A stretch of 64,000 nt of DNA from an uncultured Actinomycetes bacterium (GTDB taxonomy: Bacteria > Actinomycetota > UBA4738 > HRBIN12): positions 26,365 to 90,364 of the forward strand of contig CAVZUW010000003.1 in assembly GCA_963778545.1 (NCBI GenBank), given 5' to 3'. The position numbers and the translations under genes were made by a program. Numbering within the stretch: the first letter of the stretch is position 1; every line of letters begins with the position of its first letter. The notes beneath the pieces are model-generated. The model saw nothing but the letters and a program-made list of their open reading frames with translations. It did not search any database and was not told the DNA's origin. Below are positions 3,105-49,908 of this stretch, piece by piece.

Positions 3105-3343
3105 CCGCGGAACGTTCGCGTTCGGCGTCCTTCGCTTGTGACGTTCGTCACACCTGCTTCCTTCGCACGGGCTCCGCTGTTACACTCCGTCGATCATGAG
3201 GCGACTCCAGGTGTCGTTCGGGAGCAGGAAGACGGGTCTCATCCCGTTCTTCATCGCGGCCGTCTAGCGGTCGCAACCCCCGCCTCTCCGGCGGGACCCC
3301 GAACCACCGTCCCTCGATCCAACCGAGCAACAGGAGTCGTCCG

Positions 3344-4600: not shown

Positions 4601-4617
4601 ACGGAGGTCGGGGGGCG

Positions 4618-5832
4618 GTGGACACTCAGCCGGTGACCGCCCCCCGATCCGCCGTTCGAAGGCTGGCGACCGCCCGGTTGATCTCGATCACGGGCGGGGC
4701 CGCGGCCTACGCGGCGCTGAACTTCACGATCTTCGAGAAGACCGGTTCGGCCTCGTGGGTCGCGCTGTCGCTGCTGCTCACCTTCGGCGTCCTGGGGTTC
4801 ATCGGGCCGCCGGCAGGCATCCTCGGCGACCGCTTCGACCGGCGGAAGGTCATGATCGCCTCGGAGCTGGCCGGAGCGGTGTGCTTCGGGATGATGGCGC
4901 TCTCGTCCGAGCCATCCTGGCTCCTGACGTGGGCGTTCCTGTCCGCGGTCGCGGAGGCGCCGTTCTTCTCGGCCTCCGAGGCGGCGATCCCCAACGTCGC
5001 CGGCCCCGAGCTCACGACGTGGGCGAACAGCCTCGTCAGCGCGAGCCGGCTCTCCGGGATCGCGGTCGGCCCGGCGCTCGGCGGGGCGCTGCTCGCGGTG
5101 TCGAACAACCCCGACCTCGTGTTCGGCGTGAACGCGGTGTCGTTCGTCCTGTCCGCGTTGATCATCATGAGCGTCCGCGCTCGATTCTCGGGGGAGCGAG
5201 GCGACGAGGAGTTCGGCGGGCTGCGGGCCGGCTTCCGGTTCCTTCGCCACGACCGCGTCCTGCGAACCCTGCTCTTCGCGTGGGTCGTGTTCATCTCCGG
5301 GATGGGGATGTCGATGGTCGCGGACGCCCCGTTGGCCGCGGTGTTCGACGCCGGGTCGTTCGGGTTCGGACTGCTGATCACCGCGTGGGGAGGCGGCTCG
5401 GCGATCGGGTCCCTGATCGCCAAGCGCATGCGGGAGGGGAGCGAGGGGACCTGGCTCGTGCGCGCGGGGATCGTGATCGCGGCGACCGGCATCGGCATCG
5501 GCATCTCGCCGTGGTTCGGCCTGGCCCTGGGGCTGATGTTCGTCATGGGCCTGGCGGACGGGACGACGATCGTCGCCGAGACCAACCTTCGGCAGCGACG
5601 GGCGCCCGACGCCGTTCGCAGCCGGGTCTCGGCCGCCTTCATGGGCGTGATGCACGTGATGCTTGCGTTCTCCTACGTCGTCGCTGCGTTCGTGGTCCCG
5701 TGGCTCGGGCCGAAGCCCACCTACCTGATCGGCGGCACGACGGCCGGGCTGGCGGTGATCGTGCTGATGCGGATGCGGCGGTACCTCGAGCTCGATGAGG
5801 CCGCGCGGCTCGAGGGTTCCGAGGCGACATGA
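4618..5832 (+). CDS. MFS transporter (paralogue 2)
   Basis: GTG start after a GGAGG RBS, 18 nt past the paralogue-1 stop. N-terminus VDTQPVTAPRSAVRRLATARLISITGGAAAYAALNF parallels paralogue 1. GDRFDRRKVM motif. Confidence 0.75.
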   Translation: MDTQPVTAPRSAVRRLATARLISITGGAAAYAALNFTIFEKTGSASWVALSLLLTFGVLGFIGPPAGILGDRFDRRKVMIASELAGAVCFGMMALSSEPSWLLTWAFLSAVAEAPFFSASEAAIPNVAGPELTTWANSLVSASRLSGIAVGPALGGALLAVSNNPDLVFGVNAVSFVLSALIIMSVRARFSGERGDEEFGGLRAGFRFLRHDRVLRTLLFAWVVFISGMGMSMVADAPLAAVFDAGSFGFGLLITAWGGGSAIGSLIAKRMREGSEGTWLVRAGIVIAATGIGIGISPWFGLALGLMFVMGLADGTTIVAETNLRQRRAPDAVRSRVSAAFMGVMHVMLAFSYVVAAFVVPWLGPKPTYLIGGTTAGLAVIVLMRMRRYLELDEAARLEGSEAT

Positions 5833-34866: not shown

Positions 34867-35187
34867 CTCCGCCGAAGCCTACCCGGCGAGCCTGCTCGCG
34901 AGGACGTCCACCTTCTCGATCGTCGGGGGCTCGGACAGGAGCTCGCCCGCCTTCTCCATCAACGCCGTGGCGATGGGTCCGGACAGGTGCACGTCGCGAC
35001 CGGAGCGTGAGGTCCGCGACGAGCCGGATATGGGAGGACGCCCACCTGCGAGGGGCGAGGCGGACGTCCTCCTTGTTGCCAGACCTCGTTGGTACCCGCC
35101 CCTGGGTCGAGGAAACCGCGCAGCGTTTCTGCGTCCCCGTTGCGGGAACACCCTGGAGGTAGGCACCGGAAGGAGGGAGTCGACCAG

Positions 35188-35784
35188 ATGGCGAACGCTT
35201 CGGCGCACCGGCTCGGGCGAGTCCTCGCGATCGCGCTCGTCCTCGCTGCCGCGACCGTCCTCCATGCGAGCGACGCGACGGCCGGGGGCGCCTGCACGAT
35301 CACGGGCACGGCCGGCGACGACCGGCTACGCGGAACCAACGGTCCCGATGTGATCTGTGGGCTCGGAGGCGACGACCGGATACGCGGTCGTTTGGGGAAC
35401 GACCTGATCCGAGGGGGAGACGGCAACGACAACCTCTTCGGCAACGCCGGCAGCGACCGGCTCGTCGGCGGGTCGGGGAGCGACTTCATGGTGGCGGGCC
35501 GAGGTCGCGACCTTTCGCTCGGTGGAGCAGGCTCGGACTTCAGCGGGGTCAGCTCTCAGGGTTCGGACCGATGGAGCGGCGGGCCGGGCATCGATCACCT
35601 GACCGACTTCAGTGGGGCTGACCGCATCTCGGGAGGGACGGGGGCCGATGGTTGCCTCGCGACCGAGGACGGTGTGGGTGACGACACGATCCGTGGCGGA
35701 CCCGGGCGTGACGTTGGGGACGCCGATGACGGCGACACCGTGTCGAGCCTCGAGATCCAAGGGCGTGTCTGTTTCGCGGACTGA
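35188..35784 (+). CDS. Secreted RTX (haemolysin-type calcium-binding) repeat protein
   Basis: ATG 35188 after a GGAAGGAGGGA RBS. Signal peptide. At least 8 GGxGxDxL/I/F nonapeptide repeats (GGDDRIRG, GGDGNDNLFG, GGSGSDFMVAG...). Confidence 0.75.
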   Translation: MANASAHRLGRVLAIALVLAAATVLHASDATAGGACTITGTAGDDRLRGTNGPDVICGLGGDDRIRGRLGNDLIRGGDGNDNLFGNAGSDRLVGGSGSDFMVAGRGRDLSLGGAGSDFSGVSSQGSDRWSGGPGIDHLTDFSGADRISGGTGADGCLATEDGVGDDTIRGGPGRDVGDADDGDTVSSLEIQGRVCFAD

Positions 35785-35876
35785 CGTCGTGGAGGGACGG
35801 CACTTCGGTATCTGACGAGTGCCCCTCGAACCCATCAGACTTCGGGGACGCCGACCTCGAAGCCTACGAGGGGAGC

Positions 35877-38597
35877 CTAGCCACCGGGTGCCTGGTCGAC
35901 CCGGACGTGATCCAGGTTCATCGTGAAGGTCTTGGAAGCGTTGTCACCGATCTGGACCCATCCGATCGGGGTGGTGCCCGTGTTCGCGGACCAGGCGTTC
36001 ACGATGCGGACGCCGTCCCGGTACAGGTCCCAGGTCGTGGCCGACCCGACCGTGCCGCACAGCTCCACGGAGTGCCACCCCGAGCCGAGCGCCACGCCGG
36101 AGTTGAGCTGGACGCCCGAGACGTCCGAGCGCAGGGTCAGCGTGTTGGTGGAAGAGACGAAGGCCTTGATGATGGGCCCGTTCGACGCCGTGCGGAGTCG
36201 GAACAGGTCGACGTTGTTGCCCGATGCCAGGTTGACGCTCGCACTCAGGCAGGCCTGCGGGTAGGTCTGCGCGAGCGTCTTGTTCGCGAACGCGCTCTGG
36301 TTGACCACCTGAGCCCGCGCCGAGGGTGCCGACGGGCTTCCGGCGCCCGCATCGATCGTGAGCCGGGTCGTCGAGCTCCAGCCGGCGAGGTTGGCGAAAT
36401 CATCGGCGAAGATCGCTCCGGCCGCCGAGGACACGGTGATCGGCGCTGACTCGGGGCTGGAAACGCTCGCGTTGTTCATCGCGTCGACCGCATCGACCGC
36501 GTAGGTATGCATCGAGCCGGCCGCCAACCCCGTGTCGGTGAACGACGTGGCGGTCGTGGAGCCGATGGAGGACCCACCACCATCGCGGTAGACGCGGTAG
36601 GTGATCGGCGGCGAGTCGTCCGTGGAGCCGGCCCAGGCGATCTGGATCGTGCCTGCGGAGGGACTCGTTCCGGTGGGCGTCCCCGGGACGGTCGGAGGCA
36701 CGAAATCCGGCGTGCTGCTCTCGCCGGGTGCCTGGTCGACCCGGACGTGATCCAGGTTCATCGTGAAGGTCTTGGAAGCGTTGTCACCGATCTGGACCCA
36801 TCCGATCGGGGTGGTGCCCGTGTTCGCGGACCAGGCGTTCACGATGCGGACGCCGTCCCGGTACAGGTCCCAGGTCGTGGCCGACCCGACCGTGCCGCAC
36901 AGCTCCACGGAGTGCCACCCCGAGCCGAGCGCCACGCCGGAGTTGAGCTGGACGCCCGAGACGTCCGAGCGCAGGGTCAGCGTGTTGGTGGAAGAGACGA
37001 AGGCCTTGATGATGGGCCCGTTCGACGCCGTGCGGAGTCGGAACAGGTCGACGTTGTTGCCCGATGCCAGGTTGACGCTCGCACTCAGGCAGGCCTGCGG
37101 GTAGGTCTGCGCGAGCGTCTTGTTCGCGAACGCGCTCTGGTTGACCACCTGAGCCCGCGCCGAGGGTGCCGACGGGCTTCCGGCGCCCGCATCGATCGTG
37201 AGCCGGGTCGTCGAGCTCCAGCCGGCGAGGTTGGCGAAATCATCGGCGAAGATCGCTCCGGCCGCCGAGGACACGGTGATCGGCGCGGACGCAGGACTCG
37301 GTGGCCCCGTGTTCACCTCGTCGCTCGCGACGACCACGTAGGTGTGCGTGCTCGCGGCCGCGAGCCCCGTGTCGGTGAAGGACACGTTCGGGCCGGCACT
37401 CACGACGCTCCCCACCGGTGCCGGACCGCCGTCGCGATAGACGCGATAGGTGAGAGTCGCGTCGTCGGGGTCGGTCGCCGCCGACCAGGTAAGGGCGATC
37501 GCCCCCGGAGCGCCCGCTGCGCCGCTCGGCTGTCCGGGCGCCGTGGGCGGAGTGGTGTCATCGGGCGGCGAGGCCACAGCGGTGAAGTACGGGTCGGCCC
37601 CCATCGCGGTGAAGGCCGTCAATGAGGAGGCGCTGGAGTCGATCAGGAAGTTGCACCCGGGGTTCGCCCAATCGACGGTGTTGAAGTAGAGCGCGGCGCG
37701 GAACGATTCCCATCCGGGTGACTTGAGCAGGGCCCGGGCGTCGTTGAACCACTGCGCCTTGCGGCCGGGCACCGATGGATCCTCCACGGTGCCGAACTCG
37801 GGAAGCATCAGAGGGATCGTGGGATGGTTCTGACCGAACAACCGGAGAGGGTTCACGATATCGAAGAACGATTTCCAGGGACCGTTCGGGAAGCCTGCCT
37901 TGCAGTTATGCCAGTTGTACGCGTCTGCTCCGATCGCGTCGACGTACCCATCGCCCGGATACCAGTTCGCCGCGGCGTGCTCGCCTGTGATCCAGAAGGC
38001 TTCATCCGTGAGCGTCCAGACGAACTGCGCATTGACCGTCCCTTCGGCCTCGAAGACGTTCCACACCCGCCGCCAGGCATCGATGTAGTCGGTGCTCGTC
38101 CCGAGATCGTCGTTCCGCATCATCTCCGGTTCGGGTGAGAACAAGAAGTAGAGCGGCGCGCCGTAGTCGCGGATACGTCGCGCCCAGCTCACGAGGTCGT
38201 TGTAGACGGGTGATCCCACTGGTGCGTCGGCGATGGTCCTCCACAGCACGGGCGTGCCGTTCCCGTATCGGGTGGCTAGCGAGAGGAAGAGCGTGTGGTT
38301 CGTATCGCGCATCCACAGATCCAATGGCGTGGGGAATGCCGAGTCCCAACGGTCGAACTCCCGTATGGCCGCCAGCGGACGACCGATGTCCGCCTCGATG
38401 TTCCCGATCTCCTGCTGCGTGACGGGCACGGGATGGGCGCCGAGGATGATGGTCGGGAGCGCGGGGTCGGCGGACGCGGGCAACGGAGCGCCGACCACCC
38501 CTGACGCACATGCCACGGCCACAAGGAGCACGAACACCACGGGCGCGAAGAGGCCGGTGGGCTCGCCTCGACGTCGCCGCTGAGGTGTGAGCGTCAT
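35877..38597 (-). CDS. Secreted multidomain glycoside hydrolase, GH26-like (mannanase family) catalytic domain + [FN3 + ~185-aa jelly-roll/ConA-like module] x2
   Basis: 906 aa from ATG 38597 (MTLTPQRRRRGEPTGLFAPVVFVLLVAVACASG is a signal peptide). GH26-like region WRRVWNVF...WTLTDE...WYPGDGYVDAIGADAYNW...EFG. Two FN3-like segments and a duplicated C-terminal module. Confidence 0.8.
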   Translation of the reverse strand: MTLTPQRRRRGEPTGLFAPVVFVLLVAVACASGVVGAPLPASADPALPTIILGAHPVPVTQQEIGNIEADIGRPLAAIREFDRWDSAFPTPLDLWMRDTNHTLFLSLATRYGNGTPVLWRTIADAPVGSPVYNDLVSWARRIRDYGAPLYFLFSPEPEMMRNDDLGTSTDYIDAWRRVWNVFEAEGTVNAQFVWTLTDEAFWITGEHAAANWYPGDGYVDAIGADAYNWHNCKAGFPNGPWKSFFDIVNPLRLFGQNHPTIPLMLPEFGTVEDPSVPGRKAQWFNDARALLKSPGWESFRAALYFNTVDWANPGCNFLIDSSASSLTAFTAMGADPYFTAVASPPDDTTPPTAPGQPSGAAGAPGAIALTWSAATDPDDATLTYRVYRDGGPAPVGSVVSAGPNVSFTDTGLAAASTHTYVVVASDEVNTGPPSPASAPITVSSAAGAIFADDFANLAGWSSTTRLTIDAGAGSPSAPSARAQVVNQSAFANKTLAQTYPQACLSASVNLASGNNVDLFRLRTASNGPIIKAFVSSTNTLTLRSDVSGVQLNSGVALGSGWHSVELCGTVGSATTWDLYRDGVRIVNAWSANTGTTPIGWVQIGDNASKTFTMNLDHVRVDQAPGESSTPDFVPPTVPGTPTGTSPSAGTIQIAWAGSTDDSPPITYRVYRDGGGSSIGSTTATSFTDTGLAAGSMHTYAVDAVDAMNNASVSSPESAPITVSSAAGAIFADDFANLAGWSSTTRLTIDAGAGSPSAPSARAQVVNQSAFANKTLAQTYPQACLSASVNLASGNNVDLFRLRTASNGPIIKAFVSSTNTLTLRSDVSGVQLNSGVALGSGWHSVELCGTVGSATTWDLYRDGVRIVNAWSANTGTTPIGWVQIGDNASKTFTMNLDHVRVDQAPGG
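35881..36437. repeat. Copy 1 of a 557-bp perfect direct repeat (part of an 840-bp tandem duplication inside the GH26 gene)
   Basis: 35881-36437 is identical to 36721-37277 (period 840 bp). The identical 113-aa and 180-aa antisense ORFs in the track arise from this. Confidence 0.85.
36721..37277. repeat. Copy 2 of the 557-bp perfect direct repeat
   Basis: See copy 1. The flanking ~280 bp (FN3 segments) have diverged. Confidence 0.85.
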
Positions 38598-38797
38598 CCG
38601 ATGGGGCGGTCGACCCCCGGTGAGGGACTCGACCGACGGCGCATCGTAGACGGGGGTGGGGCCGAGGCGCAATCCTTCATCCGGATGAAGATCCTCGTCG
38701 GGATCATGCGGCCTAGAGGGATTGCTTCCGGGGTGCCACGCGTGAGTGGCGAGGCAATGAGGCGACGCCGCCCGTAGACGTCGATCTGCGTTCCCTG

Positions 38798-38841
38798 GTG
38801 CGCCGGGGAGGACTCGAACCTCCGACCCGCTGCTTAGAAGG
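38798..38841. repeat. 44-bp direct repeat identical to the 3' part of tRNA-Arg(TCT) (49833-49876); candidate attR of an integrated element
   Basis: GTGCGCCGGGGAGGACTCGAACCTCCGACCCGCTGCTTAGAAGG occurs at both positions. It covers the acceptor 3' strand, T-arm, variable loop and the 3' anticodon stem/loop. Confidence 0.75.
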
Positions 38842-38999
38842 TATGCGGGAGCGGAACGACGTGCGAACATGCCTGGACGCACCGTATCGAGCGAGCGGAA
38901 TGCGCTTAGTTAGCGGGTCGGGTCACGGTGCATTGGGCTGTCCGAGCCGCCGCGTACGGTACCTGTGCTTCCCCCCGACTACGTCCGAGCGAGGTGGTC

Positions 39000-39242
39000 A
39001 TGACGTTGCGACCGTTGGCCCCGCGATGCCAGCGGGTAGACGATGACATCCAATGCAGGTTCGATGCCGTGCGGCGGGTGCTCATCGTCGGCGGTGACCC
39101 GCCGGACCCCGATCAGTCGGGCTTCGCTGGGACGATCTACACGGTCCAGGTCTGCAAGCAGCACGACCCCGACCCGCGCCAGTCGATGCCGATCCCCCGT
39201 CCTCCGGGTTCCGTGCCGATCGGGGAACGTCCGCACTTGTAG
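39000..39242 (+). CDS. Hypothetical small protein
   Basis: ORF 38928-39242 (internal ATG 39000). No recognisable domain. Confidence 0.3.
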   Translation: MTLRPLAPRCQRVDDDIQCRFDAVRRVLIVGGDPPDPDQSGFAGTIYTVQVCKQHDPDPRQSMPIPRPPGSVPIGERPHL

Positions 39243-39302
39243 GGCGCAGCGAAATCGTGGCCGGAGGCCTAATTCCCCATCAGCGGGAGTAGGCTCCTAG
39301 CC

Positions 39303-39668
39303 GTGGACCATGCCCCCATTCCTCCAGAGCAGTACCGGGCGGGTGTACCACTTCTCTTTCTCGAACTGTTGGCGAAGTCCCCGCGCAACGGCGGAGAGGA
39401 AGCGGTGCAGAAGTACTACGAACTTCGTGATGCGAGAATGATGACACTGGCGAAAGGGACCGCCGCGGCGGCGGTCTCCATCTTGACTGCTTGGTTCATA
39501 CCCTTCCTCAAGAATGAGTACGAGGACGCCCCGGAGTGGTTGATCTTGTGGCCCCCTCTTGCGTTGCTCGTCGTATTGGTGATTGCAGGGGGACTGGCTT
39601 TCATCAACCTAAACAGGATTCACAAATCGCTCATCCGAGCGATGTCTCTCTTGGAGCTCTACCGATGA
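39303..39668 (+). CDS. Hypothetical 2-TM membrane protein in a lower-GC segment
   Basis: 121 aa with two C-terminal TM helices (AAAAVSILTAWFIPFL; LILWPPLALLVVLVIAGGLAFI). AT-richer codons (aaa, ttt, att) are atypical for this genome. Confidence 0.55.
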   Translation: MDHAPIPPEQYRAGVPLLFLELLAKSPRNGGEEAVQKYYELRDARMMTLAKGTAAAAVSILTAWFIPFLKNEYEDAPEWLILWPPLALLVVLVIAGGLAFINLNRIHKSLIRAMSLLELYR

Positions 39669-40177
39669 GGATCGTCGCCGGATCCACAGCGTTTCTTACT
39701 GCCTTGTCCCTTCTAGCTACTGGACTCGCCGTGGCCCTTGCTTTGGTGTGGATCATTCAGCAATCGCGAATGAAATCGGCCAGGGAGAGGGTGGCGGAGT
39801 CCCCGGTCTGGGATCAAGTCGTAGGGTTCTGGACCGAGTCTAAGACGCAGTCAGAGGGCGCCTTTATCAGTCAAGTCCAAGAAAGAATCTCGACGCTTGG
39901 GCAGATATCCGTCAGGTTCGGACGGGTTCTCGACGGGGAGGAGGTCGCCTCTCGGCTTCGCGAGGCGCTCCCGGACGCGAGACAGTTGGAGCAACGACTT
40001 CGCAAGGAACTAGAGAAACAGGGCAGGGTCGTTGGTGCAATCAGTCACTTCCCGATAGAGACGTTGGATGGGAATCAGGAGGCGCTGCTCGTGAGCTACC
40101 TCAGAGAGTGGAAAACGCTAAGGGATCTGGAGGATCGCCTAAGCCGAGAGATATCCCGCCTCTCATTCGCTCTCTGA
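39665..40177 (+). CDS. Hypothetical membrane-anchored coiled-coil protein (N-terminal TM helix)
   Basis: ATGA overlap with the previous gene. MRIVAGSTAFLTALSLLATGLAVALALVWII TM helix, then a charged helical region (RLREALPDARQLEQRLRKELEKQ). Confidence 0.55.
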   Translation: MRIVAGSTAFLTALSLLATGLAVALALVWIIQQSRMKSARERVAESPVWDQVVGFWTESKTQSEGAFISQVQERISTLGQISVRFGRVLDGEEVASRLREALPDARQLEQRLRKELEKQGRVVGAISHFPIETLDGNQEALLVSYLREWKTLRDLEDRLSREISRLSFAL

Positions 40178-40245
40178 CTCGCCGGGGATCACGTCCTCGG
40201 TTGGACGCTTGGGTCCCCCCGCGCCCCGTGCCGAATTCCTCCACG

Positions 40246-40390
40246 TCCCTCATGCTCCCCCGACTTCGAACGAGCCGACAGGATCGGCGAGTTCTGGAGT
40301 TACCGCAGAGCCGCACCTTCGCCGAGTTACTGATCGACTGCGAAAAGAGGATCAGGTGCTGCGAGCGGTGCTGGTCGGAATGTTGCGAGA
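40246..40390. repeat. Copy 1 of a ~145-bp imperfect direct repeat in a 770-bp non-coding stretch
   Basis: Roughly 85% identical to 40643-40790. Shared core ...GGATCGGCGAGTTCTGGAG.TACC..CAGAGCCGCACCTTCGCCGAG...TGATCGACTGCGA... Confidence 0.5.
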
Positions 40391-40642
40391 GGGCCAGCGC
40401 TGGGGTCCCTCCTAGGAACACCCAACCGGCGAGAGTACGTCGATTGAGCGATGCGCACCCTCCTCGGCGTTCCTACGATTCTGATGCGGTTCAGGGACAC
40501 CGGGCTTGCTGTGGTCGGGCCACCGCAAGGGCCTCCCCTCAGGACCATCGAACGGGTCCGCTCGGTGTCCCTGACCGACCACAAGATCACCGAGCCATCG
40601 GGCTTCCCCGCCCCGGTCGGAAGCGAGGGACGGGGCCGGTGT

Positions 40643-40790
40643 TCTCAATGCTCCCCGACTTCGAAACGCCCCACCGGATCGGCGAGTTCTGGAGCTACCC
40701 ACAGAGCCGCACCTTCGCCGAGCTGTTGATCGACTGCGAGGAGGATCGGACGCTCCGTGCGGTGTTGGTCGGATGCTCCGGGAGACTCAG
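40643..40790. repeat. Copy 2 of the ~145-bp imperfect direct repeat
   Basis: See copy 1. The indels between copies do not preserve a reading frame, which argues against protein coding. Confidence 0.5.
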
Positions 40791-40945
40791 CAGGGGCGCT
40801 AGGTGCGGTCGGGAACCGCCCCGCACGGCGAGCAGTCGGAGAAGTTCGCATTCTGTAGGGATTCTGGGGAGTAGACCTTCGGCGGGGCGGCTCCCCAACT
40901 CGTCCGACTGTGTGGCCGGCTTCCAGATGCCACGATTCGCGGGTT

Positions 40946-41287
40946 ATGGCGATCATCGAGATGATCGGAAGGCCCGACTCACGCCCATACGTCGTGGTTC
41001 GGGGACGGTTGACCGACGAAGACGAGGGACGCCTGCTCGCACGTGTCCTGACTTCGCGCCATGTCGATGTCGTGGTCGATCTATGTGAGATCGACGAGGT
41101 GACGGACGAGGGTTGCACCGCGATCAAGAACGTGGCCGAGCACATGGATAAGGATCAGACGATGGTGGTGGTGTACGTCCCCGACCGGGAGGCGACTCGA
41201 CCCCTCGAGCGATCCGGGATTACGGATGATGGCCGGATCGTGCTCGTCGCAGCCTCGCCGTCTCGTCGTATCAGTCTCGAGGTCTGA
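40946..41287 (+). CDS. STAS-domain protein (anti-sigma-factor antagonist-like)
   Basis: 113 aa from ATG 40946. Beta-alpha pattern MAIIEMIGRPDSRPYVVVRGRL...VVVDLCEIDEVTDEGCTAI typical of SpoIIAA/STAS. Confidence 0.6.
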   Translation: MAIIEMIGRPDSRPYVVVRGRLTDEDEGRLLARVLTSRHVDVVVDLCEIDEVTDEGCTAIKNVAEHMDKDQTMVVVYVPDREATRPLERSGITDDGRIVLVAASPSRRISLEV

Positions 41288-41471
41288 CACCCTGGGACAC
41301 CGCGAGCCCGCACCGTACGGCGAGCCGGCGGTCTGAGTCCGCACCGCGAGCCGTCATACACGGGCTGTAGAGCGCTCAGGCGACTCGACCGGCGGCCAAC
41401 CGCGCACGCAGAGTTCGGCGCGAGGAGGTGGGCTATGCATTCGAAGGTCTGCACAGTCTTCCGGACCTAGA

Positions 41472-41723
41472 GTGGCCTCCATGGGTCGCCGCGAGCACGA
41501 CATCTACGAGCATGCCGTCGGCGCGGTGATCGCGCAGGCCGCTGAGGAGAAGCGCGACATCTACGAGCACGCCGTCCTCGCGGTGATCGCGCAGGCCGCC
41601 AGGGAGACCGAGAGGGCCGGCGGGGAGCGCGAGCCTCGTCCGGGCGGAGGAATGAGGGGCATCTGGATCGGGCTCGCCCTATCTCTCCCTATCTGGGGCG
41701 TGATCATCTGGTGGCTGTCATGA
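41472..41723 (+). CDS. Small membrane protein with an internal 20-aa tandem repeat
   Basis: 83 aa. DIYEHAVGAVIAQAAEEKR / DIYEHAVLAVIAQAARETER (60-bp tandem duplication in the DNA). C-terminal TM helix IWIGLALSLPIWGVIIWWL. Confidence 0.45.
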   Translation: MASMGRREHDIYEHAVGAVIAQAAEEKRDIYEHAVLAVIAQAARETERAGGEREPRPGGGMRGIWIGLALSLPIWGVIIWWLS

Positions 41724-41875
41724 GGAACGAATCGTTGAAGTCACCAAGGAGGCGGCGCTCCACTGTCGGAGACCGCCTCGGCGTCACGCCCCGGCACTGG
41801 GCGCACCGGGAGCCCACGCCGCACGGCGAGCCGGGCTGGTGGTCGGAGGACGCAGCGCAGTAGCGTTGCCGCTAA

Positions 41876-42463
41876 GTGCAGAAGCCCGCGTTCATCCTGG
41901 GGGCGCTCGCCCTGGCCGCGATGCTGGCCGCCTGCGGTGGCAGCGGGCCGACCACCGAGAAGGATGGGGAGGGAGCGGTCTGGTCCACCCCCCACGCCTC
42001 CTGGGGCGTCAACCACGCGGGGGTGAAGGTCGGCAGCACATGGTCGGCAGGAGGCGTCCTGCTGTGCAGGACGGGCGAGGCCGTGCCAACGATCGCATCG
42101 GTCGTCCCGGTCCAGGTGTCCGGGGACGTGGAACTCGACAACATCGGGGTCCGCACCGCGAAGAGACCGGGGCCGAGTGGTCCCGCACCCACGGACACCT
42201 ACCTCGTCGGGACGATGCACGGCAAGCCCCCGGGCCTGCAAGCTCCGAGAGGCTACGTCGTGCCGAACGACTGCGGCGATGGTCCCGACGGCAGCCCGGT
42301 CGGCGATCCGATCGGCGAGGTCGTCGTCACGATGACCAGGACGGGGGCCTCCGGCGGCGCGCTGGACGGTCTGCGGGTCGCCTACACCGTCGATGACGAC
42401 GACGAGCAGCACGTCTTCGACATCCACTTCCACTTCGGGTTCAACAAGGCTCAGAGCCGGTAG
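41876..42463 (+). CDS. Lipoprotein, hypothetical
   Basis: GTG start. Signal peptide with lipobox LAACGG. 195 aa, Gly/Pro-rich, no known domain. Confidence 0.6.
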   Translation: MQKPAFILGALALAAMLAACGGSGPTTEKDGEGAVWSTPHASWGVNHAGVKVGSTWSAGGVLLCRTGEAVPTIASVVPVQVSGDVELDNIGVRTAKRPGPSGPAPTDTYLVGTMHGKPPGLQAPRGYVVPNDCGDGPDGSPVGDPIGEVVVTMTRTGASGGALDGLRVAYTVDDDDEQHVFDIHFHFGFNKAQSR

Positions 42464-42520
42464 CGGTGGAAGGGCCGGGCTCGCAGCGGACCCGACCCCT
42501 CCACCCGGGAGACCGTCCCA

Positions 42521-42820
42521 TCACGTCAGCCTGACCGTCGGCGGGTAGTCGCGGGACAGCTCGACGTCGAGGAGGTCCTCCTCCAATAGCGCTGCGGCCA
42601 TCCGGCCAGCCTCGGTGTCGACCAACCGGATCCTCATCTCGGCCGGCGTGAGCCGCTCGGCACAACCGACGATGTGCCGCCCGGCCCTCCAACGGACGCC
42701 GTCGTATACGTCCTGCTCGAGCATGAGCCTGAGCCGCCTTCCCATAGGCAGGCTGCCGAGCCCTGGCTCCAGCTGCGCCGCGATGACCGCCTCCGCCGTC
42801 GTCGGTTGTGCCGTCCTCAT
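42521..42820 (-). CDS. Hypothetical protein (element-borne)
   Basis: 99-aa ORF. Start overlaps the stop of the upstream gene. Confidence 0.4.
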   Translation of the reverse strand: MRTAQPTTAEAVIAAQLEPGLGSLPMGRRLRLMLEQDVYDGVRWRAGRHIVGCAERLTPAEMRIRLVDTEAGRMAAALLEEDLLDVELSRDYPPTVRLT

Positions 42821-43303
42821 CGCTCCTTCTTCCGCTCCCGGATCGCGGCGACCTCCGCGGCCTGTTGCCGGGCTCCTGCCTCGAGCTCCTCCTCCAGGAA
42901 TCGCGGCTTGGGCCGCTGACTGAACTCCTCTGCGGGCGACGCGTAGGCGGGATCGCCGGCCATGAGCGACTCGAACGGCGTCGACCCCTCCTGCGCCGGG
43001 ACGCCGGCGGCGATGGGCACCACCACAGCAGCGGCGGCACTCTCAGCCGCGATCCGGGCCAACCGCTCACGCTCTTCACGCAGCAGATCGCCGAGCACCT
43101 CGCGGCGCACGCATCGCCGACCCAGGTCGTCCTCGACGATCTCGACGCCGCGCTCGAGCAAGGACGAGCTCCCAGCCGACGATGGGTTCGGTGAGGTCGA
43201 GCGACAGATGCCCGATCGGGACCAGCTCGGCCTCGTTCAACCACTGCTTCGCGGCTCTGCGGGCGATCTCGGCGCCCTCGTTCGGTTCGATGTTCTCGTT
43301 CAT
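42817..43303 (-). CDS. Hypothetical phage-related protein with a frameshift near 43150-43165
   Basis: ORF 43076-43303 (MNENIEPNEGAEIARRAAKQWLNEAELVPIGHLSLDLTEPIVGWELVL) continues in ORF 42817-43161 (LERGVEIVEDDLGRR...). Confidence 0.4.
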
Positions 43304-43399
43304 CCTTCACTCCTTCCCTTGTAGACGTGGATCCTCGGGGTTGGCGCATGTTCGACCCTGGTCACACCGTCAAAGGCGATCATCGCCGCGAGCGCCGCC

Positions 43400-44742
43400 G
43401 CGATCGGTGCGCCCTGGGCAACGTCCAGGTCCGGGCGCGGTCCAGACGGTCCCGGCGATCAACCCAGGTTGGCGACGTGCCGCCGCAGCACGCGATCACC
43501 GTCGTGTGACAGGCGCTGCTCGAGGACGGCGTCGAAGAACTGCTGACCACTGCAACGCGAGGCGCTGCGGGCTCCTGGGGACCTTGGTGATCGGCAGGCC
43601 TTCCTCGGCGAGCATCCAGCAGCACCCACGACCAGTCGTGCCTCCGAACACAGGAACTCGTGGACGTTGTAGCGGGCCCAGACGGCCCGGAGCTCGTCGG
43701 CGACGTCGGAGGGATCGACGCGCTCGGCCTCCTCCCAGACCTGATCGGGAAGACGTGCGGCTCGTCGAGCGTGCAGCCGACGATCGCGACGGTGTCGCGA
43801 GCGCGAGCGGCGACGAACGCGACGACGACCTTGGTTCCCTCGGGGATGGCGCGGGCGACCGGCGGCGGCCTCCCACACCCCGTCTGCGAACGCGACGTCG
43901 CGCCCGGTCGTCCATTGGTTCAGGTGCAGCCGTCTGAACTGGTTCTCCGGGAGACGCCGAGCCATATCGACGAGGCGGGCCTGGACCAGGAACGGGTCCG
44001 GCACACGAAGGGCGGGGTTCGCGAGCCGCCACGTCCTCGGCGAGCGGTAGTCGGCCTCGGAGTCTTGGGGAAGACCGACCCACCGATACAGGAACCGCGG
44101 GTCCTTGCCCTCCTCGCCCTCGCGGACGAGATCACCCAGCAGCGAGCCGCGGTCGTAGCCGGCGGTGCGAGATCCCGAGCAGCAGCGGCTCGGTCCGCGC
44201 GCCGAACCCGGACTCGAGGACGTCCCACAACTCGCGCGACGGCTGGACGTGGACCTCGTCGAAGATGACGGCGCTCGGGCGCAGGCCGTGCTTGAGCGGC
44301 GCGTCGGCGCTCATCACCCGCCAGACCAGTCGGTGCCGGGGTCCTCGATCGCGTCGCGGAAGATCCGAAGCGTCGCCGACAGCCGCGGGGAGAACTCGAC
44401 CATCCGCTTGCCGGCGTCGAAGACGATGCGCGCCTGCGGCTTGTCGCCGGCGACCGAGATCACCTCGGCGCCGTAGGTCCCATCGGCGACGAGCATCTTG
44501 GTCCCGACCGCGGCCGCGATCTCCGACTTGCCGTTCTTCCGCGGCAGGCCCCACAGCGCGCGGGTGTAGCACGCGGTGGCCTGCGTGACCTCCCGGAACA
44601 ACTCGGTCAGGAAGTCGCGCTGGAACGCGCGGAGCTTGAACGGCCGGCCCGCCCACCGGTCGGAGGTGTGCCGGAGCTCGCCCTCGATGAAGCGGACCGG
44701 ATCGACGCGGACGAGGCCCCGAGCGCGAGCGCGCTCGGCCAT
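43400..44742 (-). CDS. Terminase large subunit, interrupted by at least two frameshifts. 3' end approximate
   Basis: Walker A GLPRKNGKS in ORF 44314-44742. ...AVIFDEVHVQPSRELWDVLESGFGARTEPLLLGIS in ORF 44132-44656. Nuclease region PENQFRRLHLNQWTTGRDVAFADGVWEAA, ELRAVWARYNVHEF and FFDAVLEQRLSHDGDRVLRRHVANLG in ORFs 43459-44083. Confidence 0.7.
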
Positions 44743-44859
44743 CAGCGTCGCCTTCCGATACTTCTCGGCGAGCTCCTGCTGGAGCGACTTACCTCGGAGC
44801 TGCGACAGGCCGATATGCGTCAGAGCGCGACGGGCTCCCGCCGAACTCGACCGCCAGAC

Positions 44860-45210
44860 GAGCCACCAGGGCGACGGCCTGGCGACCAGGCTCGGAAGGC
44901 CGGGTTCAGGATCGCCCCCCGGCTGCCGGTGACGCAGAGCTCCCCTTCCTCGAGCTCTGCGCGGCGCGCTCGGCCATGCCGACGGCGACGGCGAACTGAC
45001 GGAGCAGCGGCAGGTGGATCGACTGGAGCGCCCCGGCCTCGGCCAGCGGCTCGGCGACCTGGGTCCAGGCCTCCTGCTCGACCGGGCCGAGGTCCGCCGG
45101 CGGCTCCGGGACGGCCTCCAGCGGGGCGAAGCGGATCGGCTGGGGCAGGGCGCGCTTGCCGGGGTTGCCTCGGCGCTTGGCGATCTCGACGGGGACGGGT
45201 CTACGGGGCA
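44860..45210 (-). CDS. Terminase small subunit, P27 family, C-terminal part frameshifted. Coordinates approximate
   Basis: MPRRPVPVEIAKRRGNPGKRALPQPIRFAPLEAVPEPPADLGPVEQEAWTQVAEPLAEAGALQSIHLPLLRQFAVAVGMAERA matches the P27 small terminase family. The C-terminus continues in another frame (...GAILNPAFRAWSPGRRPGG...). Confidence 0.55.
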
Positions 45211-45212
45211 TC

Positions 45213-45475
45213 GACGTCCTCCCAGTCCGGGCCACCTTCCCAGCCAGGACCGCCGGCCAGGAAGCGACGCAGGACCTCGCGGATCTCCTCTGCTCGCGCC
45301 GGGGGGGCCACATCACGGCCTGCATGTAGAGCTGGTCGTCTGGCGTTAGGGCGGTGGAGAGCATGAACACGCCGGTGAGCTCGTCGCCGGGGCGGGTCAG
45401 GACCTTCCGGGCGATCTCGGCGACCTCGTTCAGCGCCTCATCGCTCGGAAGCGTCACCTTCGGTCGGTTCTTCAC
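45213..45475 (-). CDS. Hypothetical small phage protein with a frameshift in a C7/G7 run at 45302-45308
   Basis: VKNRPKVTLPSDEALNEVAEIARKVLTRPGDELTGVFMLSTALTPDDQLYMQAV, then after a 1-nt shift ...PPARAEEIREVLRRFLAGGPGWEGGPDWEDVDAP*. Confidence 0.35.
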
Positions 45476-45610
45476 GTCATCCTCTCCTTCTGGGCCGTTC
45501 TGGGGCGTTCTGGGGCCTGGTACAAGCCCTGGTACAAGCCGGCGGGAAGTGCGGCGGCGCACACCGGCCAAGATGTGGCGGTACTAGCAGCGCGGCTCAA
45601 AGAATCGGTC

Positions 45611-45957
45611 TTCATCGCCGACCTCGCTTCCGCTTCTTCCCGATCTCCGAGTCGCGGTGGTTCTTCTCGTTCGCGTGCATCGCGCACAACGACTGAAGGT
45701 TCTCCTCGTTGTCGTCCTCCACCGAACGCCTTGGCCTGGATGTGGTCGACCGTGGTCGCGACCGCGCCACAGACTCGACAGCCGGGCTCGAGCCGGAGGT
45801 GGGCGGCCCGGATCTTGGGCCAACGTGAGCCGTAGTCCCGCCCTGCGGTGACCCACCCTCCGCCTCGACGGGTGTGGTCGGGGCACCTGCCGCCGTACCT
45901 GGTGCGGTTGGGGCAGCCTGGCTCGGCGCACTGAACGGGCAGCAGGTTCAGGCTCAT
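45611..45957 (-). CDS. HNH endonuclease with a +1 frameshift at the GGTGGAGGA run (~45715-45725)
   Basis: MSLNLLPVQCAEPGCPNRTRYGGRCPDHTRRGGGW...CRVCGAVATTVDHIQAKAFGG, then the shifted frame gives EDDNEENLQSLCAMHANEKNHRDSEIGKKRKRGRR*, completing the HNH motif (DH...N...LC..CHN.K). Confidence 0.7.
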
Positions 45958-46119
45958 GCCGTCCCGCCGTTCAGCACGTGCTCGACCACGATCGCGGTCC
46001 ACGTAGCACGGCCAGGTGGAGGCTCCACGCCGAGGGTGTTCAGCTCGAACGCGGCGGCCGTCTTCGGGCTGCCTGCGCCGGCGTGTGCAACCAGGGTCTC
46101 GCGGACGGTCCGGGCGATC

Positions 46120-48172
46120 TCACCCAGGGGATACAGTGCCGAAGACCCTGGCCCATCCTGGCCCACCGCCTCTGACCTGCGGGAATCGCTCTGAGCCACC
46201 CTGGCCCGGATCCTGGCCCAGCGTGGCCTGGGCCGGGATGGGCCGGGGTCCGTCCAACTGTTCTTCCAGGAGATCGTCATCGTCGGGGTCGGCTGGGCCT
46301 CGGAGGCCGATGCCCTCGATGTATCGGTCTCGGATCTCGCTCGCAGGGGTCCGGTGCCGAACCTCACGCAGGCCGGGGTAGGCGGCGTGCAAGTCTCGGA
46401 ACAGCACCGCCTTGGTGCCGGCGCGGTCCTTGCCCTCGTCCTGGCACCAGTCCTTCCACGCCGTCCAGAGCTCGTCCTTGCGAACCTCATGGACCGGCAC
46501 CGACGACGCAACGGTCCCGTACGAACGCGGAGACCGGGGAAGCGAGATCCTGGAGGCGCTGGAGGGCGGCCTCGGGACGACTGCGGGCATCTCGAAGTAG
46601 CCGCGAGCGTTCAGGCGATCCAGACCGTCGAGGGACCAGTTGAAGATGCCGGGTGCCTCGGCCAGCAAGGCATCGGTGAGCCCTGGGTCCTCCTGTCCGA
46701 AGAAGCTGTTCGTGAGCACCAGGACGATGAACCGGGACGCGAGGGCGCCGGATGCGTCGGTGAACCTGGGGACCTCGTTCGTCAGGACCATGAACCGCGT
46801 CGGGAGTCTGCCCGTCCAGGGGTCGCGGTACTTCCGGTCGATCGTCAGCGAGTCCTCGCCGGAGATCGACAGCAGCCGCTCGACCGCGACCGTCCCGTCC
46901 GCCCGCGTTGATAGGCGTGCATCGGAGATCAGCCCGAGCGGTCTTCCGATGAGCGGGGACAGGCCGAAGTTGGTCGTGAGCCCCGCGAGGGTCGGCGCGG
47001 CGACGTTGTGGGCGCCCAGCAGACCGGTCAGGACGCGACCGATCGTGCCCTTGCCCGAGCGGAGCGGCCCGACGAGCATGAAGATCTTCTGCAGGTCCGT
47101 GCCGCCTCCCAGGATGTAGCCCATCACCTCGGCCAGCGCGTCACGGGACTGCTCGTCCTCGGGCCACAACTCCTCGAGGAACCGGAGCCACCGGGCCGGG
47201 CGTCGGCGCCGTGCGGTCGTACTCGAACGGCAGGACATGCGGGGCGAAGTACGCGGGGGTGTGCGGGATCAGCTTGCGCGTCGAGATGGTCAGCAGCCCG
47301 TTCGCGAGTGGCACAACCTGACCCTGGTCCTCCCCCACGATCCACGCCGGCGTGGTGATGTGCATGTCCAGGTGGGTGTTGGCCCGGATGGCGTCGATGA
47401 GGTCGGCGATCTTGTAGCGGGTCGGCTCGAAGTCGACGAGCTCCACGTCGTCCTTGACCTTCTTCCAGTACTTGGCGCCGTCCAGCCACCGGTACAGGTC
47501 GCTCTCGAGACGGCGTTCGTCGAACTCGGGCCACGAGGTGCCGTCGTAGCGGTGGAACGTGTTGCGGTGATGGCGGACGAGCGACTCGACGACGTCATCG
47601 GGGTAGTGGTGCTCCAGGAACATCTTCCCGACGGCGTAGGGGTTCGACGGCGCGGGGACGGTCAGCGTCTCGACCGGCGCCAGCTTGGGCAGGTCCCGCG
47701 TGAACTCGTCGTGGAGGTCTTCGGCCGTCGGGTCCGTCACGCCGGCCTCCTCAGGTCGTGGCCGAGCTCGCGCCAGCGGTCCAGGTCGGTCGTCGAAGGC
47801 AGAGGGCGTCGGCATTCCGGGGCAGCGATCGTGGCCGCGACGCAGGAGCCGGCGGTTCGCGTCGATAACGTCACGCGGTACGCGCTGGTCGCCCTCGAAC
47901 AGGTGGCGGCAGCCCCGCCAGATCGCGGTCTCGAGGAACGCCGCGTTCTCCGAGCGGCGAGTTCGGGCCATCATCTCGAGCAGCGCCTTGCACTTCGCTT
48001 CGACGGTCAGCTCGGGATCGTCGGCGACGAGACGGGCGGCGGTCTCCCAGCGCCTGATCTCGGCGAGGACTCGTTCGGTCGCTTCGTCGGTGTAGGATTC
48101 GGGCTGGCGGTACGTCTTGGTAGTGGCGTTGGCCCCGGAGCCCTCCGGGGCCGTTCGCTGTCCAGGGTTCAT
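46120..48172 (-). CDS. Phage/plasmid primase, P4/D5 family (primase C-terminal domain plus D5-type NTPase), frameshift in 47141-47238
   Basis: ORF 47141-48172 (...NGLLTISTRKLIPHTPAYFAPHVLPFEYDRTAPTP) and ORF 46120-47238 (RWLRFLEELWPEDEQSRDALAEVMGYILGGGTDLQKIFMLVGPLRSGKGT...) together make the TIGR01613-like domain and a Walker A motif. Confidence 0.8.
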
Positions 48173-48420
48173 CCCGAACCACCCGACCTGCGAGCAGCCC
48201 GGACCTTGGCGCTCTTGTAGGCTAGGCCGAGCATGTAGGCCTTGCGGGCGTGCTCGGCACGACGTGCGCGCTCGGCGGGATCCAGCACTCCGTCGGGATC
48301 GACCTGACGCTCGAACCGCTCGGCGTTGGCCTTGCGGGCTGCCTCCGTCGTCTTACGCGCATCGTGCATCGAATGCGCGGCGACTTGGTGGCGAAGGGAC
48401 TTCTCAACGACTGAACCCAC
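48169..48420 (-). CDS. Hypothetical small basic protein (element-borne)
   Basis: 83-aa ORF reads protein-like (AERARRAEHARKAYMLGLAYKSAKVRAAR). No known domain. Confidence 0.4.
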   Translation of the reverse strand: MGSVVEKSLRHQVAAHSMHDARKTTEAARKANAERFERQVDPDGVLDPAERARRAEHARKAYMLGLAYKSAKVRAARRSGGSG

Positions 48421-48559
48421 GGCCCACCTCCTCGGTGGTCACCGTGGGTCCCTGGTCCCACGACACCCGGCGTCTGCCGGAGAGCCGATATCGAGGGTGA
48501 TTCTAGGGGTCCGGCGTACGACGTGCAACGACGGCGTCGCTGACAGGACTTGCCCGTCC

Positions 48560-48797
48560 CCGGTGTCCGCCGACGGAAGTGGACGGCCACGCTACCGTCG
48601 CGTTGTGCCGTCTCGAACTCGGTCTTCTCGATCGCCACCACACCGTGCTTCGGACACATCGACACGACGGAGTACTCGCCCTCCAGCACGATGTCGGCCG
48701 CGCTTCGGACGCCGACCCACCGCTCCCATGTTCCGGGTCTCAGGCGCCGGCCACAGATCTTCCCGCGACCGTCAGAGATGCCACACAGCAGCTTCAC
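48560..48797 (-). CDS. Putative small Cys-rich (zinc-finger-like) protein, translationally coupled to the integrase. 3' end uncertain
   Basis: GTG at 48797 overlaps the integrase stop (GTGA). VKLLCGISDGRGKICGRRLRPGTWERWVGVRSAADIVLEGEYSVVSMCPKHGVVAIEKTEFETAQRDGSVAVHF. Downstream the frame degenerates to Arg/Pro-rich junk. Confidence 0.3.
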
Positions 48798-49738
48798 AGC
48801 CGATCCCCCGGCGCGGTCCGTCGATGGGCGTCGTCGAGAGCGCGTTCGGCGGCGACGCACGAGCCGTAGCGCGACAGCATCGAGCGGCTGCGCCAACCGG
48901 CGAGGGCCATCAGGTTCTCGCCCTCGACGCCGTCGGCCATCCTGTCGTGGGCGAAGGTGTGGCGGAACCGGTGCAGGTTGATGCGCTCGTCGATCCCGGC
49001 GTCCCTGGCCCGCTTGCGGACGATCTGGGCGATGCCGTTGTCGGTGAGCGGTCCCGCGAGACCGAGCCACAGGTTCGGCAAGTGCGCAGCGCGGTGTCCG
49101 GCGCGGGCGCGCAGGTAGCGGTCGAGCGCCTGGGCGCACTTGTGGCCGAAGGCGACGGTGCGGATGCGCCGACCCTTGCCGGTCACGGTGGCCTGTCGGA
49201 GCCGGAGGTCGATGTCGTCCGTGGACAGGTTCGTCAGCTCGGCACGCCGGCAGCCGGTGTCCACGAACATGCGGATGATCGCCAGGTCTCGCCGGTCGGC
49301 GAAGGCCGTCCCCGAACACGCCTTGATGAGCGCGGCGAGCTGGTCGTCGGCGATCACCGGGACGGGCTGCTCGGGGACGATCGGCGGGTGCATGTTCACC
49401 ATCGGGGAGACGCTGATCTCGCCGTCGGAGACGGCCCACCGGAAGAACTGTTGGAGCCCCCGATAGCGGATGTGCACCGAGGTCGGACTCACGCGCTTGA
49501 GCTCGGCGGCAACGAACGCCTCGACGTGTTCCCGCGTGATCGCGTCCACGCGGGTCGGCATACCGGAGCGCTCGAGGAACGCGGCGAACAACTCGACGGC
49601 GTCTAAGTAGGTGCTCGTTGTACGGGGCGACAGGTTGCGCGCCGCGAGCGCGATCTCGAACGACTGCGCGAGCCGACGGACGTCACCGAGGTCGGATGCG
49701 TCACGCCGGCGTGACGCCTTGGCGGTCCTGGTCCCCAT
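48794..49738 (-). CDS. Tyrosine-type site-specific integrase/recombinase
   Basis: 314 aa. N-terminal SAM-like domain. C-terminal catalytic motifs R...(HRFRHTFAHD)...RY with ...LSRYG. Located 95 nt from the tRNA-Arg 3' end. Confidence 0.9.
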   Translation of the reverse strand: MGTRTAKASRRRDASDLGDVRRLAQSFEIALAARNLSPRTTSTYLDAVELFAAFLERSGMPTRVDAITREHVEAFVAAELKRVSPTSVHIRYRGLQQFFRWAVSDGEISVSPMVNMHPPIVPEQPVPVIADDQLAALIKACSGTAFADRRDLAIIRMFVDTGCRRAELTNLSTDDIDLRLRQATVTGKGRRIRTVAFGHKCAQALDRYLRARAGHRAAHLPNLWLGLAGPLTDNGIAQIVRKRARDAGIDERINLHRFRHTFAHDRMADGVEGENLMALAGWRSRSMLSRYGSCVAAERALDDAHRRTAPGDRL

Positions 49739-49833
49739 ATCCTCCTGCCTGTCCAGTTAGCGGCTCACTATGCGGTGTGCATGAGGTGAGCGTCAATCGA
49801 GGGAGGCTGGATATGACCTCTGACCTGGGGTTG

Positions 49834-49908
49834 TGCGCCGGGGAGGACTCGAACCTCCGACCCGCTGCTTAGAAGGCAGCCGCTCTGTCCAGACTGAGCT
49901 ACCGGCGC
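49834..49908 (-). tRNA. tRNA-Arg (anticodon TCT)
   Basis: 75-nt cloverleaf read on the minus strand: GCGCCGG-TA-GCTC/AGTCTGGACA/GAGC-G-GCTGC/CTTCTAA/GCAGC-GGGTC-GGAGG/TTCGAGT/CCTCC-CCGGCGC-A. Confidence 0.9.

Follow-up and report, generated by a model that had tools for sequence, protein, structure and literature searches.

The stretch of DNA analysed here, which we call the window, is a 64,000-nucleotide (nt) segment of contig CAVZUW010000003.1 (assembly GCA_963778545.1, positions 26,365 to 90,364 of the forward strand) from an uncultured bacterium of the Actinomycetes, an Acidimicrobiia-like soil organism. One of its genes, a single long open reading frame (ORF) of the reverse strand, encodes a 906-residue protein that contains, in this order, a predicted signal peptide, a catalytic domain of glycoside hydrolase family GH26, a first FN3 domain (FN3a), a first copy of a module of ca. 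182 residues, a Pro/Thr linker with a second FN3 domain (FN3b), and a second copy of the same module at the C-terminus (Table 1). This alternation of FN3 and module had been proposed in an earlier reading of the DNA made from its letters alone (hereafter the original prediction), and the translation of the ORF together with the tblastn coordinates bear it out. As start codon we prefer the ATG at 38597, which would place a positively charged n-region (QRRRRGEP) ahead of the hydrophobic core of the signal peptide. The counterpart in the public data (P0001) is the same protein with the start called at the GTG at 38540 (887 residues), a choice that removes the charged n-region. The start obtained by mechanical ORF calling, at 38882, adds 285 nt (38598–38882) by reading through a tRNA-derived attachment (att) repeat. 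Scans for promoters and terminators over positions 35600–39000 found none, a weak test for an actinobacterium with 70% guanine plus cytosine (GC).

Table 1. Position of the features described at the GH26 locus, in window coordinates.
Feature	Position	Strand	Remarks
Whole gene	35877..38597	-	906 residues from ATG 38597; stop codon 35877-35879; single long ORF
Predicted signal peptide	38469..38597	-	MTLTPQRRRRGEPTGLFAPVVFVLLVAVACASGVVGAPLPASA before DP; read from the translation
GH26 catalytic domain, lichenase (CtLic26A-like) branch	37563..38468	-	Pfam PF02156, profile, structure model, Foldseek
FN3a (residues 346-444)	37266..37562	-	tblastn coordinates; subtype found after GH26 in all single-module homologues
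Module copy 1 (residues 445-625)	36723..37265	-	ConA-like jelly roll of an unnamed family
Pro/Thr linker and FN3b (residues 626-724)	36426..36722	-	linker ESSTPDFVPPTVPG; different FN3 subtype
Module copy 2 (residues 725-906)	35880..36425	-	C-terminal
Exact repeat, copy A	36724..37286		563 nt; end of FN3a and module 1; longest exact match at offset 840
Exact repeat, copy B	35884..36446		563 nt; end of FN3b and module 2; proposed gene-conversion tract
att repeat, copy of tRNA-Arg 3' end	38798..38841		exact 44-nt direct repeat; 201 nt upstream of the start codon; island end
Second att copy	49833..49876		3' part of tRNA-Arg(TCT) 49833-49908
Integrated element	38842..49832		ca. 11 kb, between the att repeats

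The two module copies are embedded in an exact repeat at an offset of exactly 840 nt, which keeps the reading frame. The repeated tract takes in about the last nine codons of the FN3 domain (SAPITVSS), the AAG linker and the whole module, and its borders are sharp, with identity dropping from 100% to 20–47% in the 30-nt windows flanking it. At the C-terminal side it finishes at the very point where the homology ends, one copy reading APG-G-stop and the other APG-ESSTPD. The original prediction had recognised the identity, which stands, over 557 nt (35881–36437 and 36721–37277); its extent has to be corrected to 563 nt, the proposed start being displaced by 3 nt and the proposed end falling 9 nt too early. 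Tandem Repeats Finder reported no repeat here, its longest period (500) being below the 840-nt offset.

The FN3 domains adjoining this tract have diverged, as had also been said before. FN3a and FN3b share only 53% of their residues and are separated by two indels; in every genome compared, 106 of the 261 nucleotides that can be aligned are different (ca. 40%). FN3b is closer to the FN3 domains of other module-bearing proteins (63–73% identity) than to FN3a, the nearest relatives of which are the FN3 domains of GH26 homologues. Shuffling, and not a copying of the first unit, is thus the probable source of the second. These data bear directly on the possibility that an 840-bp unit of FN3 plus module was simply duplicated in tandem very recently, with only its FN3 part diverging afterwards. 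The exact, in-frame offset would agree with it, and arrays of n FN3 domains and a module, with exact repeats of FN3 plus module, exist in the module family (e.g., in L007, described below). However, such an event would have to leave 563 nt without a difference next to a domain that differs at 40% of its nucleotides and by two indels, FN3b resembles the FN3 of other proteins more than its supposed parent, and it is common to lineages that are ca. 16% diverged in their GH26 domain. A simple duplication is thus contradicted by the present data and we consider it extremely improbable.

The closest relatives of the gene were taken from the 90% cluster of the protein, together with their contigs. 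The order GH26-FN3a-module 1-FN3b-module 2 recurs in a sister strain (L009), a 312-kb, indel-rich contig (108 gaps in 6.2 kb) that probably derives from long reads. Its GH26 domain is 2.5% diverged from that of the window and its second module is divergent and truncated, with 18 mismatches in 192 positions with respect to its own module 1 and a two-codon insertion (“SG”) that matches the consensus of the wider family; a deletion of ca. 1 kb has removed the rest of this module and most of the gene that lies beyond it, coding for an RTX protein. Two modules are found as well in L010 (ERZ15622940) and L011 (ERZ14708816), separate SPAdes assemblies of different samples that are 99.97% identical to each other and have a GH26 domain ca. 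16% diverged from that of the window, and there the two copies are mutually identical. At the same locus, L012 (a JGI contig, sister to L010) and L014 (ERZ15656536, a SPAdes assembly of a third sample at 2.5x coverage, 99.6% identical to L010) have one module, and so has the more distant and non-syntenic L013 (a JGI contig). The comparison of orthologues that the original prediction had called for, to see whether they carry one module or two, has thus given both answers. The idea that each lineage duplicated the module independently was rejected, FN3b and its linker being orthologous across lineages.

The distribution of differences among these sequences carries the interpretation. Module 1 and module 2 do not differ at any of the 563 positions in the window, nor do they in L010 (0/563, within an exact run of 581 nt), whereas the modules of the window differ from those of L010 at 33 of 563 sites. 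For their part, the FN3b orthologues of the window, L009 and L010 differ among themselves by 26–34 of 276 nt. In the assembled sequences, therefore, the modules are identical within and different between genomes and the flanking domain goes by position; modules grouping by genome and FN3b grouping by position is, as far as these assemblies can be trusted, the standard signature of concerted evolution by gene conversion. Had the two copies evolved independently since the split between the window and L010, at least ca. 33 differences would be expected, and the chance of finding none is in the order of e^-33 by our own calculation. We conclude that the identity of the modules in this lichenase-branch GH26 gene is best explained by intragenic gene conversion, with a probability that we would put at about two thirds. 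Out of the three explanations offered by the original prediction this is the favoured one, while a simple recent duplication fails on the FN3 data and the assembly may still account for part of the exactness or of the copy number.

The sequence of events would be as follows. The second unit of FN3 plus module would not be a fresh copy of the first, as FN3b is an old and different subtype and the two-module layout is common to related lineages; the layout would have come about by domain shuffling with another module-bearing gene. Afterwards, intragenic, non-reciprocal homologous recombination would have kept the module copies identical, along a conversion tract running from the last beta-strand of FN3, where the two domains are still similar, to the end of the homology at the stop codon. 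What has survived is the “ANL” form, which module 1 of L009 and the homologues with a single module also have; this suggests that copy 1 acted as the donor. The 563 nt of identity would in turn make the 840-bp unit prone to be lost or gained by recombination. Loss of this unit would explain the single module of L012 and L014, although the behaviour of the assembler fits equally well, and the one-module form of L014 in particular is either a real copy-number polymorphism of 840 bp or the result of an assembler skipping the repeat loop.

Both the process and the type of architecture are known, so that the locus is a clear example of gene conversion and not a new kind of system. The alpha C and Rib proteins of group B streptococci carry identical tandem repeats, a case of intragenic concerted evolution. 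The window gene shares with them the presence of long repeats identical at the DNA level within one secreted protein, the greater similarity within than between genomes, and the apparent gain and loss of whole units. In contrast, it has only two copies, split by a spacer domain that is not homogenised, and it belongs to an environmental actinobacterium and codes for a glycoside hydrolase with no link to immune evasion. The locus is also a compact and well-controlled case, from an uncultured bacterium, of concerted evolution within a single gene.

Several observations weigh against this interpretation, and most of them bear on the quality of the assemblies. Both the identity and the copy number of the modules are known from the assembly alone; a de Bruijn-graph assembler may print merged near-identical repeats alike, so that the 100% may overstate a real value of ca. 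98–99%, and the number of copies could exceed two. Among the relatives, exact module pairs occur only on low-coverage SPAdes contigs (3–4x in L010 and L011, 7x in L007), whereas adjacent modules on contigs that are probably of long reads have diverged, being only 82–91% identical in L009 and in the “contig_N” contigs L003 and L004 of metagenome-assembled genomes (MAGs). Then there is L014, a close relative assembled with a single module from a population nearly identical to that of L010. Lastly, L009 is nearer to the window than L010 is and yet its copies are not homogenised, a pattern that calls either for two separate conversion events or for a replacement in L009 at a later time.

Taken to the extreme, these points would mean that the pair is an assembly artefact, either a single true module printed twice (an unrolled loop or a chimeric contig) or two non-identical modules merged and then written out alike. 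However, an assembler cannot invent junctions, and those between module, linker and FN3b and between FN3b and module are unique, in frame and similar to the ones found in multi-module homologues. Judging from these junctions, at least two copies must exist in the window gene. The same two-module layout is supported by the separate assemblies L010 and L011 and, probably with long reads, by the 312-kb contig of L009. The near-identity is also real, since a k-mer assembler would not merge copies that differ as those of L009 do (ca. 9% plus an indel), and those of the window must then be at least nearly identical. We regard an artefact of either sort as unlikely. The locus serves nonetheless as a warning that, when metagenomes are assembled, it depends on the assembler how many copies of a repeat of 500–600 nt are shown and whether they are exactly identical.

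Divergence along the gene is also uneven. Between the clade of the window and that of L010 and L012 it amounts to ca. 16% in GH26, 6% in the modules and 5–9% in the downstream flank, a mosaic which suggests that the lineages have recombined, the breakpoint falling within the gene. Homologous recombination with another strain or with a paralogue might very recently have brought in the 3' end (module-FN3b-module) or a single module; such an import would be consistent with this lower divergence of the 3' half and its flank, and many genes in these genomes carry the module and might act as a source. However, import alone cannot make two copies within one gene identical, a homogenising step being needed in any case, and the 64-kb window contains no further copy of the module. 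As a substitute for gene conversion we find it quite improbable.

The catalytic domain belongs to GH26, a family that takes in mannanases, xylanases (beta-1,3-xylanases among them) and lichenases (PMC6556568). The match to the Pfam model PF02156 was partial (23.8 bits, with a cut-off of 20.2). A profile built from an alignment of 20 homologues of the domain (A2) was far more informative, since it matched CtLic26A nearly from end to end (E 5.6e-41, positions 16–288, i.e., 273 of 302), while its matches to GH26 mannanases were partial (E 1e-9 to 1e-3). The structure was modelled by AlphaFold2 (AF2) with a predicted local distance difference test (pLDDT) of 94.3 and alternating strands and helices. 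Foldseek superposed the model on the CtLic26 structure 2vi0 with template modelling (TM) scores of 0.79/0.86, a root mean square deviation of ca. 2.4 Å and E ca. 6e-20. All of the top seven matches were CtLic26 chains (E ca. 1e-19 to 1e-20), followed among the GH26 enzymes by a mixed-linkage xylanase and then by mannanases (E ca. 1e-11, with TM 0.65–0.68 for the latter). The mannanase branch was rejected as the nearest kin on these values (0.65–0.68 compared with 0.79 for CtLic26A), and the description of the enzyme as mannanase-like in the original prediction has to be abandoned. Two glutamates, Glu156 (FSPEPE) and Glu267 (LPEFG), are invariant among the 20 homologues and align with the HEAN and AEF motifs of CtLic26A; we propose that they may be the acid/base and the nucleophile, respectively. 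The roles of the CtLic26A glutamates were reportedly assigned by Taylor et al. in 2005. The domain hence shows the match to the family model above its curated threshold, the (beta/alpha)8 barrel of clan GH-A and the two catalytic glutamates (acid/base behind strand 4, nucleophile behind strand 7) that characterise GH26.

CtLic26A is the beta-1,3-1,4-glucanase domain of CelH from Clostridium thermocellum (PDB 2bv9, 2vi0 and 2cip). The likeness extends over the full-length profile match, the (beta/alpha)8 fold and the motifs of the acid/base (HE(A/P)) and of the nucleophile (AEF/PEF). However, identity is only ca. 20%, a similarity at which the substrate specificity cannot be read, and the accessory modules are FN3 and ConA-like domains here as against a cellulosomal context in CelH. 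The gene encodes, by its sequence and modelled fold, a secreted GH26 endo-glycanase of the CtLic26A lichenase branch, the enzyme activity being predicted, and should be annotated as a GH26 lichenase-branch enzyme and not as a mannanase; it is mainly for such annotation that the locus is of value. Soil Acidimicrobiia are a group with almost no characterised enzymes.

Searches of Pfam, NCBIfam and the PDB sequences did not assign the module itself to any named family of carbohydrate-binding modules (CBMs) or of other domains, in agreement with the original prediction. Pfam gave no family for the window module alone even at E values up to 10, and NCBIfam had no match over it. Of 29 aligned members of the module family, 28 were without a Pfam match and one matched Laminin_G_3 (PF13385). 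A profile of the module gave no more than a non-significant match (E 0.3) among the PDB sequences. The fold, on the other hand, is clear from the AF2 model (pLDDT 96.5, all-beta), which is a concanavalin A (ConA)-like jelly roll of two sheets; Foldseek returned 323 matches at E ≤1e-3, and all domains among the matches listed were ConA-like, so that the ConA/LamG-type fold put forward initially is supported. Structural neighbours include the TtX122 domains, the PL20 glucuronan lyase, the N-terminal half of the tetanus toxin Hc fragment and the lectin domain of a Vibrio sialidase, with TM scores of 0.6–0.74 and identities of 15% at most. The proteins P0131 and P0133 have divergent copies of the module that score above the Pfam threshold of Polysacc_lyase (PF14099), and one in P0028 passes that of Laminin_G_3, which places the family, as far as such matches go, in the ConA-like clan, where current Pfam models mostly miss it.

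At E ≤1e-3 the module family comprised 1,531 representative clusters (979 at E ≤1e-10). Among 188 proteins with a near-complete copy, 102 had one, 60 two, 21 three, four had four and one had five, and the last copy ended within 12 residues of the C-terminus in 142 of the 188. The domains associated with it include GH26, DUF5122 propellers, RCC1, NHL, Laminin_G_3, malectin, and a metallophosphoesterase with CBM96. The best matches in a single-sequence scan of genome contigs were 56–69% identical and came from MAGs of Ilumatobacteraceae and Acidimicrobiia; soil Acidimicrobiia (Ilumatobacteraceae-like MAGs) commonly carry members of the family. In one such gene, L007, which has three modules, an FN3 domain (281 nt) and a module (540 nt) are each exactly repeated 1134 nt apart (positions 2779–3602 and 3913–4736), which is another case of either repeat homogenisation or recent duplication within the family.

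The residues invariant in the module are two Cys, D8, W16, P34-S35, R76, W117 and D172. PF14099, PF13385, the TtX122 domains (8q2a and 8q29) and the PL20 lyase (2zzj) share the jelly-roll fold (TM 0.70–0.74), but lyases use a His/Tyr pair, and no invariant pair of this kind was found in the aligned members of the module family. The module reaches five copies per protein and is mostly C-terminal, which looks more like a binding module than an enzyme. A catalytic module of the polysaccharide lyase type, considered for the resemblance to PF14099 and PL20, was rejected as the leading idea on the lack of an invariant His/Tyr pair and on the number of copies. The multi-copy, C-terminal pattern, usually behind FN3, points to a non-catalytic domain for glycan binding or surface targeting as the most likely role, and two identical copies would then raise avidity. 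Two facts weigh against this role: the structurally nearest solved domains, TtX122A/B, are of unknown function and neither acted on the polysaccharides with which they were assayed nor bound significantly to tissue of plant cell walls (PMC10916295), and the module is found as well behind beta-propellers, RCC1 and NHL domains, none of them a carbohydrate-active enzyme. A more ambitious proposal is that the module is a candidate new CBM family (ca. 1,500 clusters at 50% identity) whose copies are actively homogenised and whose 840-bp unit comes and goes within populations. We hold this to be doubtful; if true, it would amount to a recombination-driven tuning of the strength with which secreted enzymes attach to their target or to the cell surface. 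The unnamed family is in any case the most useful lead provided by the locus and a sensible place to look for new CBMs by module walking.

Upstream of the gene lies an island of ca. 11 kb integrated at a tRNA-Arg(TCT) gene and bounded by the two att repeats listed in Table 1. The island is confirmed by the precise empty site of the sister strain L009, in which the tRNA-Arg is directly joined to sequence that resumes at window position 38841. The att repeat already suspected in front of the GH26 gene is therefore genuine, the exact 44-nt repeat ending just where the homology to L009 begins again. Between it and the start of the gene there are ca. 200 nt of native DNA, 96% identical to L009, and an effect of the island on the expression of the gene is possible. 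The island codes for a tyrosine integrase (48794–49738) and a DUF5906 protein (46120–47238), and its GC fraction dips to 0.63–0.66 at 38–42 kb.

On the other side, the convergent neighbour (35089–35784, forward strand) encodes the RTX protein mentioned above, a calcium-binding nonapeptide-repeat protein of 231 residues (HemolysinCabind, E 2e-33), followed by Pirin and Ku genes in an order that is syntenic in L009 and L010. Within the island there are two further sets of imperfect repeats, a pair at 40258–40343 and 40653–40739 (ca. 395 nt apart, 85–90% identical) and a 57-nt tandem pair at 41494–41607 with 88% identity.

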